From positions 1 through 28,396 of the forward strand of contig PRDJ01000069.1 in NCBI GenBank assembly GCA_003345555.1: a stretch of DNA of 28,396 nucleotides. Direction: 5' to 3'. This document shows, piece after piece, positions 5,788-16,874 of the stretch (positions within the stretch are counted from its first letter, which is position 1; each line of letters starts with the position of its first letter). The DNA comes from Candidatus Thorarchaeota archaeon (lineage in GTDB: Archaea; Asgardarchaeota; Thorarchaeia; Thorarchaeales; Thorarchaeaceae). Made by a program: the position numbers and the translations under genes. The notes beneath the pieces were generated by a model that ran no database searches, was not told the origin of the DNA, and saw only the letters and a program-made list of their open reading frames with translations.

Positions 5788-8069
5788 GACTTTGGCTCCC
5801 CTAGGGCCGGCTCCCGGATGTCCTTCGGCGGCTGAATGAGTGCAGGAAACACTAGGACAAAAGCTGTGCCCTTGGAGAAATCGCCTTCAACTCTGTCCTC
5901 GATGCCTACGCTACCACCAAAGAACTCAGTGAGGGCTTTGACAACCGAGAGTCCAAGACCTGATCCTTTAGCCCCCCTCATGTAACGGTCAAACAGCGAC
6001 TCTCGACGGTCGTAGGGAATACCTGGCCCGTAGTCGACGACACGCACTTCCCAGTAACTCTTCTTGTTCCTTTCAATGGGTGATACCAAGACATCAATCC
6101 TTGGCCCGACAGAGTGTTCAACAACATTCCTGAAGAGGTTCATGAATACGTCGTGAAGCAGGTCGTTTGCAAGGATGAAGCACTCGCCCTCGGCCTTGTT
6201 CAGATTAAGTGTCATATCTTGAGAACGAATCGCTTTCGTCAGGCGGTCGAATGATTCCGTAATACATTCGACGATGTCCGTTGGTTGGAGATCTCCTGCC
6301 TCCTGAGATTCCACTTGGGATAGCCTTCGGACATTCTTGGCAAGATGATCCGCGTCTGCGAGGACTTTGTAAGCTTCATCTAGTGCCCTCATGCGCATCT
6401 CTTCTGGTGCAATCTGGAGGCGTGCAATCTCAACGGCTGAAAGAATGGCCTGGTGGTAATTCGACATGTCATGTGCAAGGACATCCCCGTAGACACGGGC
6501 ACGTCTACCCGATTCCTCGGCACGAACGAATGCCCCCATGTAGAGATAACCCATAATGGCGGGTCCCGCCAGAAGACCGAGCAGTAGCAGAATCTCTCCG
6601 GCCCACCATCCGACTGTCCACTGGAGGAATATCGATCTCAACACATTCTGGATAATCCAAAGGCTCAGGAATCCGACCGAAAGCGATTCAACCGTCATCT
6701 GTCCATGGTTCGCTGCAGCCAAGAGAAATGCAAGATAGAGAAACTCCCCGAAGGTGATGGCGTTCAAGGCGAGCTCAATACCACCACCTATGGGAAGATC
6801 TTGGAGGGAGGGATTGGAGCCTACTGCGACAGCTCGAATGATTTCCCCCGTCGCCAAGAGACAGATTCCTCCACCAAAAATCAGCCAAATCCTTCTTTTC
6901 TGTGACTGCGCGTTGTCTCTTGACGGGCGGTCATCGAACCATCTTATGGATTGAACAAGAGCAAGTATCGACAACGAGGTGACCAACATCGCAGGGAAGC
7001 CTCGGGAATAGGGAATGAGCTGGCTCAACGCCGCGTCGCGTAGACCCGTCATTGTCAGGAATAGGAAGATGAGCGCTATGGGAAACTGATACCTCCTGTC
7101 AGTCCTCCTTGCGGAAGTGAAAATCATTATTGCAAATGCACCCGACACGCACATGGAACCTATTCTCGAAAGGGTATAGGCTCCCTCGTTAATGTAAACA
7201 ACCCCGGGCGCGATTGATTCTGCTAGGAGAGCAACAAGGAAGGGAATAGGCATCAGCAGTATGATGTACAAGTCAAAGATGAAGGCCGGCTGTCTACGAG
7301 TGCCGAACTTGGCTAGGAACGTTGGCGCTAGAGACAGATAGATCTGAACAAACGCAACCAACTGCAATATCATGGTCAGAGCCCAAATCGGACCCGGATA
7401 GAACAGTCCAATCATGGAGGGCACGGGCGACAGCGCCAAAACGATGCACGCCAGAGGCATTCTTACCCGACCAGAAAACGGGAAGAGCGGTCCGACTTGA
7501 ACGATGGTCCAGTACACTCCAAGCAGAAGAACGATTGATGCGGCGCCAAGCCAGAATCCAATCGTGACAATGGCTTCTGTAGAGAGGCTTGGGAATATCA
7601 AGAGCCGCAGTGTAGCAGTCAGTAGTAACGGCACTACCAAGAGAAGCGAGAGCAACTCGATTCCTCTCCTGCCAGTTGGGACCTGTCCTCTTTCGTGCAA
7701 GATTAGGGCAAGAAAGAACACTGCTCCGAAACAAGACGTCTTCAGAAGCTCTGAAGTGATTGCGGACGATGTCACTTGAATAAAAGGCAATGATTGAAGC
7801 AGAAGATGCTCGATGGCAGCCTCGAGCTCGATAATCGCGTAGTAAAAGAATCCTACCACAACAAGAACTGGTGCAGAAGGTCTATCACCTCGCTGGTGCA
7901 ACAGGACCAGCGCGCCGCAGATTATCGCGGAAGAGACGGCCAGAATTTCATACCCTACCGTTACGAGGTAGCTTTCCCAAGCGAGGAGGCCGATTAGGAA
8001 CAATAACGCAGCAACGGAAACGGTCACCAAACCTACAACGAGTGACTGCTTCCATATCTGCCCCTGCAT
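5784..8069 (-). CDS. Multi-TM sensor histidine kinase (intact HisKA + HATPase_c)
   Basis: About 14 hydrophobic segments; H-box DVLAHDMSN, N-box NLFRNVVEH, G1 VVDYGPGIP, F-box LFDRY, G2 GSGLGL. Confidence 0.92.
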   Translation of the reverse strand: MQGQIWKQSLVVGLVTVSVAALLFLIGLLAWESYLVTVGYEILAVSSAIICGALVLLHQRGDRPSAPVLVVVGFFYYAIIELEAAIEHLLLQSLPFIQVTSSAITSELLKTSCFGAVFFLALILHERGQVPTGRRGIELLSLLLVVPLLLTATLRLLIFPSLSTEAIVTIGFWLGAASIVLLLGVYWTIVQVGPLFPFSGRVRMPLACIVLALSPVPSMIGLFYPGPIWALTMILQLVAFVQIYLSLAPTFLAKFGTRRQPAFIFDLYIILLMPIPFLVALLAESIAPGVVYINEGAYTLSRIGSMCVSGAFAIMIFTSARRTDRRYQFPIALIFLFLTMTGLRDAALSQLIPYSRGFPAMLVTSLSILALVQSIRWFDDRPSRDNAQSQKRRIWLIFGGGICLLATGEIIRAVAVGSNPSLQDLPIGGGIELALNAITFGEFLYLAFLLAAANHGQMTVESLSVGFLSLWIIQNVLRSIFLQWTVGWWAGEILLLLGLLAGPAIMGYLYMGAFVRAEESGRRARVYGDVLAHDMSNYHQAILSAVEIARLQIAPEEMRMRALDEAYKVLADADHLAKNVRRLSQVESQEAGDLQPTDIVECITESFDRLTKAIRSQDMTLNLNKAEGECFILANDLLHDVFMNLFRNVVEHSVGPRIDVLVSPIERNKKSYWEVRVVDYGPGIPYDRRESLFDRYMRGAKGSGLGLSVVKALTEFFGGSVGIEDRVEGDFSKGTAFVLVFPALIQPPKDIREPALGEPKS

Positions 8070-8266
8070 AGTCTTCTTTCATAGAGAAGCTAGTAAAGTT
8101 ATAATGCTTCTTCGACCAAACCGACCGATTATCACGGCCCATAGCGAACGATTTTCTGCTTCGGGACCTATCACTATCGAGCTGCACTGCGTTCTATAAT
8201 AGGCTAATATCGCGCAGAAGCGGAATAGGCACAGACATAAGAACCAGTATGAGTGGCGTGCATTAG

Positions 8267-8959
8267 GTGACTTCGTTGAGTATCTCGATACGGCACCTGG
8301 GACATGCAAGCGTTCTAATCAAGATAGGCGCACAGAACATCTACATCGACCCGTCCACCAAAGAAACCGGTCTACGCAAAGAAGACTTCGGGCCTTCTGA
8401 CCTGACACTGGTGACACACAGCCACCTGGACCATTGCGACCCCGACCTGTTGAAGAAGATTCGGAAAGGCGGGACACCAATCATTGCTCCTGAAGCTTGC
8501 CGTAAGGAGCTGAGCAAGCTCGGCGCTGTATGGCCTCTACAACCGGGAGAAATCATGAAGATGGGGAATGGAATCCTGATCAGGGCTGTTCCGGCGTACA
8601 ACATAACGAGAAAGAAGCCCTCAGGAGAACTGTTTCATCCCAAGGACTTCGGGGCTGGCTTTGTGCTTACTATTAATGAGAAAAGAATCTACCATGCTGG
8701 AGACACCGACCTGATTCCGGAGATGAAGCAATTGGAGAAGCTGGCTGGCAAGATAGATGTGGCTTTGATTCCATGTGATGGTTTCTATACGATGGACGTC
8801 GAGGAGGCATCTGAGGCGGCCATTGCAGTCAACCCGAAAGTGGTCATTCCTATTCACTTCAGGTCTGCAGATCCTAAAGCGTTCAAACAGAAAGTTGAGA
8901 GCAAGTCATCCATCAAAGTCGTCATTCTTCAGAAGGGTGAAGAGTACTCACTGGAGTAA
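8267..8959 (+). CDS. Metallo-beta-lactamase fold hydrolase (UPF0173/Lactamase_B_3-like)
   Basis: HLGHAS, YIDP, THSHLDH, YHAGDT, DVALIP, IPIH motifs. Confidence 0.92.
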   Translation: MTSLSISIRHLGHASVLIKIGAQNIYIDPSTKETGLRKEDFGPSDLTLVTHSHLDHCDPDLLKKIRKGGTPIIAPEACRKELSKLGAVWPLQPGEIMKMGNGILIRAVPAYNITRKKPSGELFHPKDFGAGFVLTINEKRIYHAGDTDLIPEMKQLEKLAGKIDVALIPCDGFYTMDVEEASEAAIAVNPKVVIPIHFRSADPKAFKQKVESKSSIKVVILQKGEEYSLE

Positions 8960-10254: not shown

Positions 10255-10261
10255 TATTTAA
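10255..10261 (+). promoter_or_regulatory. Probable TATA box for ywbE
   Basis: TATTTAA ending 27 nt before ATG 10288; no SD in between, so the transcript may be leaderless. Confidence 0.4.
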
Positions 10262-10287
10262 CACCATCATGATTCGCGTCGTTCACT

Positions 10288-10524
10288 ATGAACACCGAAA
10301 CCGATGGTGCTGGAACACGTCGCGAGAACATCCGCCCGGGTCTGGTGGTCGATGTGATTCTCAAGAAGGACCAGTCCACAGGCAAGTTGACCCGGGGTGT
10401 AGTCAGGGATATTCTTACCAGCTCCCCCGTTCATCCTCGTGGCATAAAGGTCCGTCTCAAGAACGGGCAGGTCGGTAGAGTAAAAGCCATTGTCAAGGGG
10501 CAGTCCGGGAAGTCGGGAACGTGA
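10288..10524 (+). CDS. ywbE: YwbE family protein (DUF2196)
   Basis: RENIRPGLVVDVILKKDQSTGKLTRGVVRDILTSSPVHPRGIKVRLKNGQVGRV matches the YwbE consensus as I recall it. Confidence 0.9.
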   Translation: MNTETDGAGTRRENIRPGLVVDVILKKDQSTGKLTRGVVRDILTSSPVHPRGIKVRLKNGQVGRVKAIVKGQSGKSGT

Positions 10525-10563
10525 GGTCTTCTCTGGTCCCTCCGGTGAGGTCGTGAGAGTGCT

Positions 10564-11328
10564 ATGCCCGGACGAAGTACGAATCATGGCTTTGGGCGTC
10601 GACGACGAGGCTATGCCGTAGCTGCGCTGGTGGGGTTAGATAGCCATCGCGCGGCCCTTTGGATCGTCTACAGTGAATCAATCAAACAACACGGCTCAAT
10701 CGAACGCCCGGTGGATTCCGATAGCAGCAAGCAGGCTGTCCTCTACAACTTCTACAATGCCATCATTGCCAAGGTGAAACAGATTCTTTCGACTGGTCTC
10801 GCCAGCCTTGTGGTAGCCAGCACAGGGGTCGACGCCGGGCTTGCCGAGAGTCTCATCGCCCACATACGCAAGCATCACGGATACCTCCTGCAATCTATTC
10901 GCATGGCAAGTATTACCGGCAATGCGATGACAGTCAACGCCGCAGGAGCACTAGTCAAGACGGACGCCTTCCAGTCGGTCGCCAACGATGTCACCGATCA
11001 GGAATCGGATGCCCTCGTTCGAATGCTTGATGCTAGGCTCTCTGATAGTACCGGACAGGTGACCGTCCTCTTCTCGCTTGAAGAGATTGACCGATATTTC
11101 AGGAATCTCTCCAAGGCCGGCGAAGCCGCTGTCGAATATCCGGAATCCGTGCTCATGACCGACGCATTCTGGGCTGCACGAAAGAATGATGCTCGCCTCC
11201 AACGGGTGATGGATGTTGCCAGGAACGCATCAGTGAAGATCCGTGTCCTGCGCAGTGATGGAAAGGCCGGGACACGCGTCGCCCAGCTTGGCGGCCTTGT
11301 CTGTTTCACGAAACGGAGAGTTCGGTAG
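10564..11328 (+). CDS. Pelota/aRF1-like protein containing only the middle and C-terminal domains
   Basis: beta-beta-beta-helix start (VAALVGL...ALWIV...LYNFYNAII...LVVAS) resembles eRF1_2; C-terminal VLMTD...KIRVLRSDGKAGTRVAQLGGLVCF resembles the Pelota/eRF1_3 end. No GGQ, NIKS or PGF motif. Confidence 0.68.
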   Translation: MPGRSTNHGFGRRRRGYAVAALVGLDSHRAALWIVYSESIKQHGSIERPVDSDSSKQAVLYNFYNAIIAKVKQILSTGLASLVVASTGVDAGLAESLIAHIRKHHGYLLQSIRMASITGNAMTVNAAGALVKTDAFQSVANDVTDQESDALVRMLDARLSDSTGQVTVLFSLEEIDRYFRNLSKAGEAAVEYPESVLMTDAFWAARKNDARLQRVMDVARNASVKIRVLRSDGKAGTRVAQLGGLVCFTKRRVR

Positions 11329-14261: not shown

Positions 14262-15907
14262 CCGCGTTGGATGGAAACTGGTTTCATATTGCAAGGGCCG
14301 AATTCCAAGTCCAGACAAGCGGCATCAGGACGCATAGGAGGATAGTTGTATCGGGTTCCATTGTTCTGGGAATCATATGGGCCCTCTTGATTGCTCCAAC
14401 TCTGATAGGTTACGTTCTCACAGAAGTCCTTGAGATTCCTCGATTGGCCGTTGCCATGGTAATGCCTGGCCTGATGCGGGCCGGAATCATGTTCATCTGG
14501 CTAATCCTCCTGATTCCATCCCTGTCAAACGCCTTGCAGGAAGTGAAGGTGGGACAATGGGAGATTCTGCTCAGTAACCGAGTCAAGACCCGTGAGATAC
14601 TGGTTGGCACATTCGTAGGCAGGCTGGCTATCTACGGGCTTTGTGTGCTCTATCTAGCTCCTCTCTTGGTTGCACCCTTCGCCCATGCGTTGGCGGTATC
14701 ATCCGTTGGACTGGCCTTGATGTACTTCACAGTCTTTGTGGTCACTGTGAGCACCATATGGTTGTCCAATCTTGTAGGCACAGCAATTCAGTCAAAGCTG
14801 GGAGCATCATCTCGGGGAAAGGACCTTGCCAAGGCGCTAGCGCTTGTTCTGAGTCCTGTGGCAGTCTTTCCTCTTTTGGGACTACAGCTCTTTGCTCCCA
14901 TGATGTCCGAGATTCTGGGCTTGGATGTCTTCTTGCTGTTCCCGTTCACTTGGGGTGCAGATTTGGTGACACAGATTGCAGTAATATTCAACGGGATTGG
15001 TCCATCCATGGAAGGTCTGGTCGCGGTTTTGGGTCTTGGCCCATCTTTGAGTCTTCTGCTTCTGGGAGGCTTCAGCATTTTTGTTGTCCTCCTAGGACTC
15101 TATTCTGCCGACCGTTTCTTCATAATCGGTGAAGGCGCAAGAACTGAGTCTGTGACGACCATACACAGGGAGAACATTGTCCTACGCGGTGTCCGCCGGA
15201 TCTCAAGTGGATCGTTTGGCGTTCTTATTGTGACCGGGCTCAAGGACTTTGGTCGAAAGGCAGAGAATCTAGCCCGCCTAGCCCTACTGATGGCCCTTGC
15301 CTTGCTGCTCCCTTTCTTCGTCTTCATCAGAGCAGGGGAATTCGAGTTGACCTCAGTCGCCATAATGATGTCGCTAATGCTCGGCTTCTTGGGTGTCCAA
15401 GTCTTCGGTGGTGTTGGGTTTCTCGAGTCAAAGGATCAGCTGTGGACAATTCAGGCCACCCCACACGGTGTCCAGAGATATGTGAAAGCAAAGGCCATTC
15501 AATGCATACTTCTCATCGTTCCAGTTGTCCTCCTTCCAAGTGTCCTCTATGCAGTGGTGCTAAGACTCAATCTGAGTCGAATCCTATTCCTACTGTCAAC
15601 ATCTTTCATTAGTTGTCTAGGTGGTGCGTTCGTTGGAATAGGAATTGCAGCAGGCAATCCGACGTATGAAGACACCAAGAGTGGAGCGTACATAACCAAC
15701 ATCGTGGAGGGAATGGGACTGGTTGTCGTATCCTCCATGTCGTATCTGATTGCCGGTATTGCTCTCTCGATGCTTGGGTTCAATGACTTGATGAACTACA
15801 TACGGACATCAGAAAGTCTTTACATCTTGGCTCAGGTCATGCCTCTTCCGATCATTGGTCTGCTAGTGATTCTAATTGGACAACACCGATTATCAAATCT
15901 GGAATGA
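14252..15907 (+). CDS. ABC exporter permease, about 12 TM (two fused ABC-2-like halves)
   Basis: Overlaps the ATPase stop; two repeats of amphipathic helix plus TM bundle (FHIARAEF... and LIVTGLKDFGRK...). Confidence 0.82.
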   Translation: MEVTALDGNWFHIARAEFQVQTSGIRTHRRIVVSGSIVLGIIWALLIAPTLIGYVLTEVLEIPRLAVAMVMPGLMRAGIMFIWLILLIPSLSNALQEVKVGQWEILLSNRVKTREILVGTFVGRLAIYGLCVLYLAPLLVAPFAHALAVSSVGLALMYFTVFVVTVSTIWLSNLVGTAIQSKLGASSRGKDLAKALALVLSPVAVFPLLGLQLFAPMMSEILGLDVFLLFPFTWGADLVTQIAVIFNGIGPSMEGLVAVLGLGPSLSLLLLGGFSIFVVLLGLYSADRFFIIGEGARTESVTTIHRENIVLRGVRRISSGSFGVLIVTGLKDFGRKAENLARLALLMALALLLPFFVFIRAGEFELTSVAIMMSLMLGFLGVQVFGGVGFLESKDQLWTIQATPHGVQRYVKAKAIQCILLIVPVVLLPSVLYAVVLRLNLSRILFLLSTSFISCLGGAFVGIGIAAGNPTYEDTKSGAYITNIVEGMGLVVVSSMSYLIAGIALSMLGFNDLMNYIRTSESLYILAQVMPLPIIGLLVILIGQHRLSNLE

Positions 15908-15965
15908 TCCTTGAATGGACGTCTGCAGAGACCACAACTTCGCATGAACTACAGGTGGAGTCTAG

Positions 15966-16874
15966 CTAAGCCCTGCCGGTCACTCCCTTAACCGCGTGCC
16001 TAATCAACCCAAAGACCGAGTTCAGAGTTATGCCGTCAGGGTCTCGCCGAACAGGATAGCCAGCGATGCCTAGACCTGCCACCTTAGGATGTCGGAACAT
16101 CCTCTCAAGAGCTGGGCCGAGCTGTGCGACGGTAGGTCCTCCCTCTGCCGGCAATCCATGTCCCGGGATTTCCTTAGGGTCAAGCACATCGATGTCAGCA
16201 TGGATATAGATGGTGTCTGTGATCTTACCGAGGCGGTCGATTTGCTGATCGATAACGGGCCTCAGTTTCCGAATATCCTCCACCGTAATATGCTCTATGT
16301 CGCTCCTGTCGATGATCTCTTGCTCAAGAGGATCTATGTCCCGAACTCCGACCATTGTGATGTATCTAGTGGGGAGCGCGACCTTCAGTCCGCACTTCAC
16401 CCTCAGTCGTTCCAAGCAAAGCCCTGCTGCAATAGCCACAGGCATCCCTGCAAGGAGTCCACTCAGGGTGGTGTCTGGTGTATTGATATCGCCATGAGCA
16501 TCCATCCATATGAGACCAACCCTGAGCGGTCTCGCACTCGGCCCTGATTTCTGGAATCCCGCCAGCATTCCCATCAGACCATTGCAGTTTGGAAGTAGCC
16601 CGATTGTGAACATCCCCTGCCGTACTTGGTCGGCCACGATGTCTGCTAGATGGCGAGAAGCGAGCCCCAGCCGATTCCACGCACCATATTGATTCGCTTC
16701 TTCGGCAGTCAACTCAGCAGTCCTTGACTCTGCAATAACGCATCCACCAGTTTCAAGAATCTTCTTGAGTCCACCTTTCTCGATTGCATCAGGTGCCGAG
16801 TTCAGCCCTTCAAGGATCTCATCACCGCTCTGAGCAAGCTTGGCAATTCCAATTCGAAGAGGCGCATTGACCAA
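15966..16874 (-). CDS. Arginase/ureohydrolase family protein with atypical metal-site residues
   Basis: WMDAHGDINTP, GMPVA, VGVRDID, HADIDVLDP motifs; GGDH replaced by LPNC and GNLHG by GLLAG. Confidence 0.85.
   Translation of the reverse strand: MVNAPLRIGIAKLAQSGDEILEGLNSAPDAIEKGGLKKILETGGCVIAESRTAELTAEEANQYGAWNRLGLASRHLADIVADQVRQGMFTIGLLPNCNGLMGMLAGFQKSGPSARPLRVGLIWMDAHGDINTPDTTLSGLLAGMPVAIAAGLCLERLRVKCGLKVALPTRYITMVGVRDIDPLEQEIIDRSDIEHITVEDIRKLRPVIDQQIDRLGKITDTIYIHADIDVLDPKEIPGHGLPAEGGPTVAQLGPALERMFRHPKVAGLGIAGYPVRRDPDGITLNSVFGLIRHAVKGVTGRA

Follow-up and report, generated by a model that had tools for sequence, protein, structure and literature searches.

The rescue factor Pelota/Dom34 is seen as one uniform protein with three domains, of which the Sm-like N-domain probes the mRNA channel. 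Here we describe a Pelota-like protein of 254 amino acids (aa) that has a middle (M) and a C-terminal (C) domain and lacks this N-domain. The protein is encoded in contig PRDJ01000069.1 of a Candidatus Thorarchaeota archaeon (assembly GCA_003345555.1), a stretch of 28,396 nucleotides (nt) that we call the window, and its gene lies directly downstream of ywbE, a gene for a small protein of the YwbE/DUF2196 family. We have coined the name tPelota for the 254-aa protein and its family. Reduced relatives of release factors have been reported from another part of the superfamily: the acVLRF-1 families and the domain-reduced baeRF-1 families were described by Burroughs and Aravind in 2019 (PMC6514570). 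Domain-reduced aeRF1 forms are described only in the aRF1-related baeRF-1 and VLRF-1 clades, and in the same survey of the aeRF1 superfamily the Dom34 clade contains three-domain proteins only (PMC6514570). The PGF motif of Dom34 is highly conserved in all species and contacts switch I and switch II of Hbs1; it directly precedes helix alpha4, and helices 3 and 4 touch the two switches (PMC5187420).

Our best explanation of the whole, held with moderate confidence, is that tPelota is a genuine, selectively maintained paralogue of Pelota/Dom34 that acts as an accessory ribosome- or factor-binding protein. The evidence that it is a Pelota-type protein comes from sequence profiles and predicted structure.

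The tPelota protein and its family

We are highly confident of the family and fold of the 254-aa protein: an Arg-rich tail of 17 residues leads into an M-C module of the Pelota type. Taken alone, its sequence has no match in a Pfam scan, and a search of the PDB with the single sequence found only a chance match to a cystathionine beta-lyase (E 0.5). The pelota model TIGR00111 aligns with it at 19.8 bits (E 4e-4), far below the cut-off of 177.65 bits; the alignment spans model positions 137-348 of 351 and so leaves out the N-domain. The best family member reaches E 4.4e-9 with this model, and the match recurs at about the same model positions (~137-348) in 32 of 33 family members; the aRF1 model (TIGR03676) is matched by one of the 33. 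PF03465 (eRF1_3) is matched by 16 of them, and in a Pfam scan of all 33 at E <= 1 it was the only model found in more than two members, with no acVLRF1 or baeRF model among the matches. A family profile compared with the PDB matched only chains of Pelota/Dom34, over the middle and C-terminal domains. By hhalign, residues 16-250 of tPelota align with residues 131-356 of the genome's own Pelota (86% probability, E 4.7e-6).

The structural comparisons point in the same direction. The AlphaFold2 (AF2) model of tPelota has a predicted local distance difference test (pLDDT) score of 85.9, with disorder confined to residues 1-13. The top Foldseek matches of the model were archaeal Pelota, yeast Dom34 and human Pelota (E ~1e-12), followed by aRF1, eRF1 and Balon. 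In structural alignments, residues 18-252 superpose on residues 141-376 of Dom34 and on residues 135-369 of human Pelota, with Z scores of 13-14. Each domain also finds its counterpart when taken alone: the middle domain scores Z 10.7 against the M domain of eRF1 (2hst; model residues 13-140) and the C domain Z 11.0 against that of human Pelota (5eo3; model residues 145-254). The M domain matches YqgF and sugar-kinase RNase H-like folds as well, at Z 8-9. An original prediction, made from the letters of the window alone, had read the protein as M and C domains behind a basic leader and had named Pelota/Dom34 and aRF1 as its likely structural relatives; profile, fold and hhalign now agree with that reading.

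None of the motifs GGQ, PGF and NIKS occurs in the 254-aa sequence. Where the GGQ loop would be, the family has a short, variable loop without a conserved Gln. Lacking a GGQ-type loop, tPelota should be unable to hydrolyse peptidyl-tRNA and is predicted to be non-catalytic, like Pelota, as the original prediction had proposed. The positions that align with PGF read TGV in this protein and PAR or PMK in other family members. The family alignment has 17 invariant columns. In the tail, which has an isoelectric point (pI) of 12 and pLDDT values below 50 for residues 1-13, the sequence GRRRRGY occupies residues 11-17, and family members hardly vary at R15, G16 and Y17. The family-specific HxRKHH motif would sit on the helix equivalent to the one that follows PGF in Dom34, and the C-terminal QLGGLxC motif aligns with LGGIAA of Pelota. 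The missing N-domain is not an artefact of start-codon choice or of a frameshift, because the open frame of tPelota extends only five codons beyond the ATG on the 5' side (259 aa in all).

The tPelota family is a discrete, uncurated and so far undescribed N-domain-less paralogue of Pelota. We collected 54 close and distant relatives of the 254-aa protein, with lengths of 219-270 aa. A profile search of 1.84 billion representative proteins gave 165 matches at E <= 1e-3. Among these representatives the full-length family matches are ~215-275 aa long, all begin at profile position 3-8, and none has an N-domain. The nearest protein outside the family is a normal 382-aa Pelota with PGF (E 6e-11). 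One protein that matched the profile, P0306 (2761 aa), was rejected as a relative since it is a repetitive low-complexity protein; the 87 extra N-terminal residues of P0264 were likewise dismissed as a low-complexity extension, probably due to a mis-called start. Members occur in 90 of 400 genomes of the source phylum, several of them assembled as a single contig, and further members come from records named Bathyarchaeota or Bathyarchaeia, plus one named Thorarchaeota. Public annotation calls them 'hypothetical protein' (NCBI) or, automatically, 'stalled ribosome rescue protein Dom34' (IMG). We found no description of the family, or of its pairing with ywbE, in the literature, including that on YwbE/DUF2196.

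The source genome also encodes a canonical Pelota, which scores above the cut-off at 287 bits and carries VIAGPGF and LGGIAAILRF, and an aRF1 with GGQ. A separate full-length pelota gene had been anticipated, and it is there. Given the coexisting canonical Pelota and GGQ-bearing aRF1, tPelota is an accessory factor and not a replacement for either. A search of this genome for a stand-alone gene for a Pelota N-domain returned the canonical Pelota only.

Two further observations concern the extent of such proteins. One contig (G153:C172) carries two copies of tPelota (7738-8469 and 15296-16030), about 7 kilobases (kb) apart on the same strand. The ESM Atlas contains a cluster of ~232-aa 'eRF1 domain 3' proteins that is commonest in Nitrososphaerota and may be a further N-domain-less Pelota-like group outside the tPelota family.

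The ywbE-tPelota locus and its conservation

The features of the locus are listed in Table 1. The original prediction had placed the two genes on one strand, closely spaced behind a single TATA-like box, and both open reading frames (ORFs), the box and the spacer were confirmed. A TATA-like element of the form CAC-R-T-R-TTTAAC is found at an equal distance in five independent related loci (L003, L004, L011, L012 and L015), and its position implies that the ywbE transcript would be leaderless or nearly so. The length of the spacer and most of its bases are conserved even where the proteins of the locus share only ~60% identity. A leaderless first gene followed by a second gene with a Shine-Dalgarno (SD) sequence is a common layout of archaeal operons. 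In the clade of the source genome, ywbE and tPelota are a conserved two-gene unit and probably form a bicistronic operon in which tPelota is the SD-led second gene.

Table 1. Positions of the features of the ywbE-tPelota locus in the window
Feature	Position	Strand	Remarks
TATA-like box TATTTAAC	10255-10262	+	~30 nt 5' of the ywbE ATG; putative promoter element
ywbE, 78-aa YwbE/DUF2196 protein	10288-10524	+	predicted small SH3/Tudor/Sm-like beta-barrel; pI 11.3
Intergenic spacer, 39 nt	10525-10563	+	no TATA-like element; SD-like AGGTCGTGA within
SD-like AGGTCGTGA	10548-10556	+	ends 7 nt 5' of the tPelota ATG
tPelota gene, 254 aa	10564-11328	+	second gene of the pair
Arg-rich tail (RRxRRGY), tPelota residues 1-17	10564-10614	+	predicted disordered; in place of the N-domain
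Middle domain, tPelota residues 18-143	10615-10992	+	eRF1_2-type, RNase H-like fold
HxRKHH motif (H100, R102, K103, H104, H105)	10861-10878	+	family-specific; invariant or nearly so in the family alignment
C-terminal domain, tPelota residues 145-254	10996-11325	+	eRF1_3/Pelota-C type; invariant G-x-R-x-x-QLGGLxC end motif

In the sequencing runs, a single small contig from an RNA library matched the locus; stretches that the runs leave uncovered are uninformative. This 220-nt contig (wetland metatranscriptome library, run X8) is identical to positions 10354-10573, with zero mismatches, and spans the 3' part of ywbE, the whole spacer and the first 10 nt of the tPelota gene. It gives only a weak hint that the two genes are co-transcribed, because DNA carry-over is possible and the contig extends only 10 nt past the spacer. 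Short contigs in two DNA runs match only the 41 bases at 11277-11317, with four differences and unlike flanks. These bases encode the conserved QLGGLVCF end of tPelota, and the contigs probably derive from a relative's tPelota copy. The two genes share a reading frame, with exactly 13 codons of spacer between them in all close relatives. We considered a read-through fusion of YwbE and tPelota and rejected it as unlikely, since at every locus one or two further in-frame stops interrupt the spacer.

For a survey of linkage, we determined the genomic positions of both families in the 400 genomes. YwbE was found in 82 genomes and together with tPelota in 42; tPelota occurs without YwbE in 48 genomes, and YwbE without tPelota in 40 (including families f8 and f10). 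In genomes with both genes, the two are adjacent in 11 of 42 and unlinked in 30. The adjacent pairs come in two arrangements. The genes lie on the same strand, with YwbE first, in all seven two-gene genomes of family f1 and both of family f23, and they are convergent neighbours in two of the three genomes of family f13. In the third f13 genome a two-gene cassette lies between tPelota and the convergent ywbE (locus L059, G089:C283). The cassette region (866-2697) contains ORFs of 339 and 270 aa, which appear from their sequences to be SIS-type and PfkB-type sugar genes, and tPelota and ywbE are directly adjacent in relatives. Unlinked pairs make up all seven genomes of f21, all 22 of f22 and the only such genome of f20, and in two closed f21 genomes the distance between the genes is 112 kb and 530 kb. 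At three distinct Bathyarchaeia-type loci that we examined, there is no YwbE within 5 kb of tPelota. Adjacency is thus confined to one same-strand clade and one convergent clade; the genes are unlinked in most genomes that have both.

Phylogenetic trees separate the two arrangements. In the tPelota tree a single clade with strong support contains all same-strand pairs (12 of its 13 rows), and another contains the convergent pairs. Across the same-strand clade the flanking genes vary, and the pair, promoter and spacer are kept down to ~38% protein identity. The YwbE tree is poorly resolved. In it the f1 copies of YwbE split, with support 95, into those linked to tPelota and those that stand alone, and the f13 copies lie in the opposite half. 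The tPelota-linked copies are also slightly extended at the N-terminus (MNTETD...). Both YwbE types occur in one genome, G362, 12 kb apart: a tPelota-linked copy with HPRG and a stand-alone copy with HLGD...HPHG, the latter type being common in f1 genomes that lack tPelota (L011, G362:C8:76070-76249; L040, G362:C8:88330-88509). The sole tPelota of the linked clade without any YwbE in its genome (L033, G324:C30:21218-21952; genome 91% complete) is also the longest branch of that clade.

These arrangements make chance a poor explanation. Two arrangements that involve different lineages of both genes make a chance adjacency hard to accept and suggest some functional tie, so that a tie between YwbE and tPelota in some lineages is plausible. 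The original prediction had allowed that the adjacency might be accidental; within the Thor-type clade this is unlikely, as the pair is kept while its flanks change. Co-occurrence was also enriched in family f22, where tPelota is present in 22 of 28 genomes with YwbE versus 39 of 107 without, an odds ratio of 6.4 in a comparison that ignores relatedness and genome completeness. Within 1.5-5 kb of tPelota we found no other conserved neighbour; besides YwbE, only overlapping-frame artefacts recurred.

YwbE and the possible roles of tPelota

By its profile scores the 78-aa protein is unambiguously a full member of YwbE/DUF2196 (PF09962: E 1.6e-29, 102.1 bits, cut-off 25, model positions 2-61; TIGR03833: 103.7 bits, cut-off 63.4, model positions 2-62). 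Its AF2 model (pLDDT 84) is a small four-stranded barrel. The SH3/Sm-type barrel that had been suggested from the sequence pattern therefore stands as a generic fold, without support for a specific likeness to the N-domain of Pelota. Foldseek matched the model to nothing in the PDB at E <= 1e-3, and the weak list consists of SH3, Tudor, LSm and Hfq domains. In a fold search independent of Foldseek the best score was Z 4.8 (Tudor), and the N-domains of Pelota scored Z 3.1-3.5, below Tudor, RimP and Sm barrels (Z 3.5-4.8) and tied with dozens of unrelated barrels, RimP, Sm, KOW, S4e and eIF5A among them. A YwbE profile compared by hhalign with the N-domain of the genome's Pelota gave 0.2% probability, and the conserved core of YwbE has ~55 residues versus ~130 in the Pelota N-domain. 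The models indicate that YwbE is a generic SH3/Tudor/Sm-like barrel, no more like the Pelota N-domain than like any such barrel.

YwbE occurs mainly in bacteria, where it is abundant; its alignment has 25 invariant columns, and the proteins of this archaeon and of bacteria are ~70% identical. To our knowledge, bacteria have no Pelota. The conserved surface of YwbE must then serve a partner that is also present in bacteria, and the core role of YwbE is independent of Pelota. Longer proteins with a YwbE domain (P0327-P0445) join it to NUDIX (in many cases), DsbA/thioredoxin-like, Cys-rich CPCC, GNAT, cyclophilin, HAD or GIY-YIG domains; an eRF1-type domain is never the partner, and there is no YwbE-tPelota fusion among the representative proteins. 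The fusion partners may be a lead to the function of YwbE.

We propose the following role for tPelota. The Sm-like N-domain would have been lost and the tail, M domain and C domain retained. The M-C module could dock as it does in Pelota, at the factor site of the large subunit, on domain 3 of aEF1A/Hbs1 and on ABCE1, and the basic tail and the HxRKHH helix could supply new contacts with RNA or protein. tPelota would then bind to ribosomes, or to the factors named, with no need to read the mRNA channel, and it might, for example, recognize vacant or idle ribosomes or free large subunits. YwbE could be functionally tied to tPelota in some lineages, and not as a stand-in for the N-domain. That tPelota associates with ribosomes at all seems to us about an even bet.

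Several points weigh against this proposal. Every step beyond the M and C folds of Pelota is one that we infer. Fold comparison hardly separates Pelota from aRF1 and Balon (Z 12.6-14.1), so the affinity to Pelota rests on weak sequence scores (19.8 bits for the protein in the window). PGF and the N-domain provide two of the contacts by which Pelota is positioned on the ribosome; tPelota has lost both, and entry into the A site may not occur. The RNase H-like fold of the M domain and the L7Ae-like fold of the C domain are also found in RNA-binding proteins that are not ribosomal. Finally, tPelota has no conserved neighbour but YwbE, and hence none that points to translation.

The other readings differ in what they make of YwbE. 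The original prediction was of a split rescue factor, in which YwbE binds tPelota and supplies an Sm-like barrel to the A site in trans, rebuilding a three-domain, Pelota-like factor. An operon conserved in one clade with a fixed spacer would suit such a complex, as would the convergent adjacency in f13, where a different tPelota clade and YwbE lineage indicate two separate juxtapositions, and YwbE is very basic. However, while the YwbE model is SH3/Sm-like and Pelota N-domains are in its fold list, they are there on a par with unrelated barrels, no score in the list exceeds Z 4.8, and the hhalign probability is 0.2%. The core of YwbE is also far shorter than a Pelota N-domain. The enrichment in f22 comes from related genomes that are not independent, and it has to be set against 30 of 42 two-gene genomes with unlinked genes, 48 with tPelota only and 40 with YwbE only, and Bathyarchaeia-type loci with no YwbE nearby. 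The ~70% identity to bacterial YwbE means that its invariant surface has another partner, and YwbE is fused neither to eRF1-type domains nor to tPelota. Prediction of a complex between tPelota and YwbE scored 0.00 in two runs without controls and weighs neither for nor against binding. None of our tests favours the split factor, and we consider YwbE very unlikely to serve as an N-domain in trans. We give as little credence to a variant limited to Thor-type lineages, in which the YwbE barrel and the Arg-rich tail together would replace the N-domain to make a two-piece A-site rescue or hibernation factor. A looser partnership has a better chance, although we put it forward only tentatively: the two proteins would work in a shared process such as translation stress or dormancy, co-regulated where they are linked, while YwbE keeps its own general ligand. 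The two independent neighbourhood arrangements fit such a partnership, and so do the separation of tPelota-linked from stand-alone YwbE in f1, with both types present in G362, and the co-occurrence that is enriched even among unlinked genes, although the tests behind the latter ignore relatedness and completeness. Bacterial baeRF-1 genes neighbour genes for hibernation factors (PMC6514570), and Balon is among the fold matches of tPelota. Yet most tPelota genes are solitary, lacking any conserved neighbour, and the fusions of YwbE suggest nucleotide or redox chemistry and not translation.

It is also conceivable that the two genes became neighbours once, by accident, and have since been inherited together by hitch-hiking, with no functional relation. 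All same-strand pairs do belong to one tPelota clade and most two-gene genomes have the genes unlinked, as expected of a neutral relic, but drift would hardly have kept the pair, the spacer length and the promoter to ~38% protein identity despite changed flanks, nor does it account for a second adjacency in another orientation and another clade; we find this doubtful. Somewhat less doubtful, and still unlikely in our judgement, is that tPelota acts off the ribosome, either as a free RNA-binding or RNA-processing protein or as a decoy that titrates aEF1A or ABCE1. The features that were lost, the N-domain and PGF, are both ones that position Pelota on the ribosome; those that were gained, the invariant basic/His motif HxRKHH and the Arg tail, could serve elsewhere; and the M domain resembles YqgF and sugar-kinase RNase H-like folds. 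Against this, tPelota shares its inter-domain architecture with its ribosome-bound relatives, as well as the LGG motif at the C-terminus, and its invariant columns hold no acidic residues of the nuclease type. We thus continue to favour an accessory ribosome- or factor-binding paralogue of Pelota, tied to YwbE in some lineages at most.

Comparison with known systems

YwbE is extremely conserved in bacteria and archaea and is a protein of unknown function, and the pair described here is one of few contextual clues to it. The 78-aa gene product is an ordinary YwbE/DUF2196 protein, and within one archaeal family (f1) the copies linked to tPelota are a separate lineage from those that stand alone. 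If YwbE did complete a split factor, this would be its first function, on the ribosome.

Among described proteins, Pelota/Dom34 (TIGR00111, COG1537) is the best sequence-profile relative of tPelota. The two share the M and C folds in the same order, the absence of GGQ and the C-terminal G-x-x-L-x-x-LGG. Unlike Pelota/Dom34, tPelota has no Sm-like N-domain, does not conserve PGF and has the new Arg-rich tail and the HxRKHH motif. The release factors aRF1/eRF1 (TIGR03676) differ in having the catalytic GGQ and a stop-codon-binding N-domain, whereas tPelota has neither GGQ nor NIKS. The acVLRF-1 and baeRF-1 proteins (PF18859, PF18854 and relatives) are bacterial and group with aRF1, whereas the affinity of tPelota is to Pelota.

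Balon (8v9j, 8rd8) resembles tPelota in its M and C folds (Z 11.5-12.6) and is a non-catalytic relative of aeRF1. The PDB titles of the Balon matches describe a hibernation factor on 70S ribosomes, in some entries with EF-Tu. In contrast to tPelota, Balon is bacterial and has an extra N-terminal part, the alignment starting only at about residue 90 of Balon, and in a profile search of the PDB the tPelota family profile had no sequence-level match to it. About one in five of the genomes sampled from its Asgard-type phylum, closed ones included, has tPelota in addition to canonical Pelota and aRF1, and tPelota is found in Bathyarchaeia as well. A conserved, N-domain-less and non-catalytic paralogue of Pelota would extend the toolkit of archaeal translation quality control, and it would have a parallel in bacteria, where aeRF1 relatives such as Balon were recently found to be hibernation factors.

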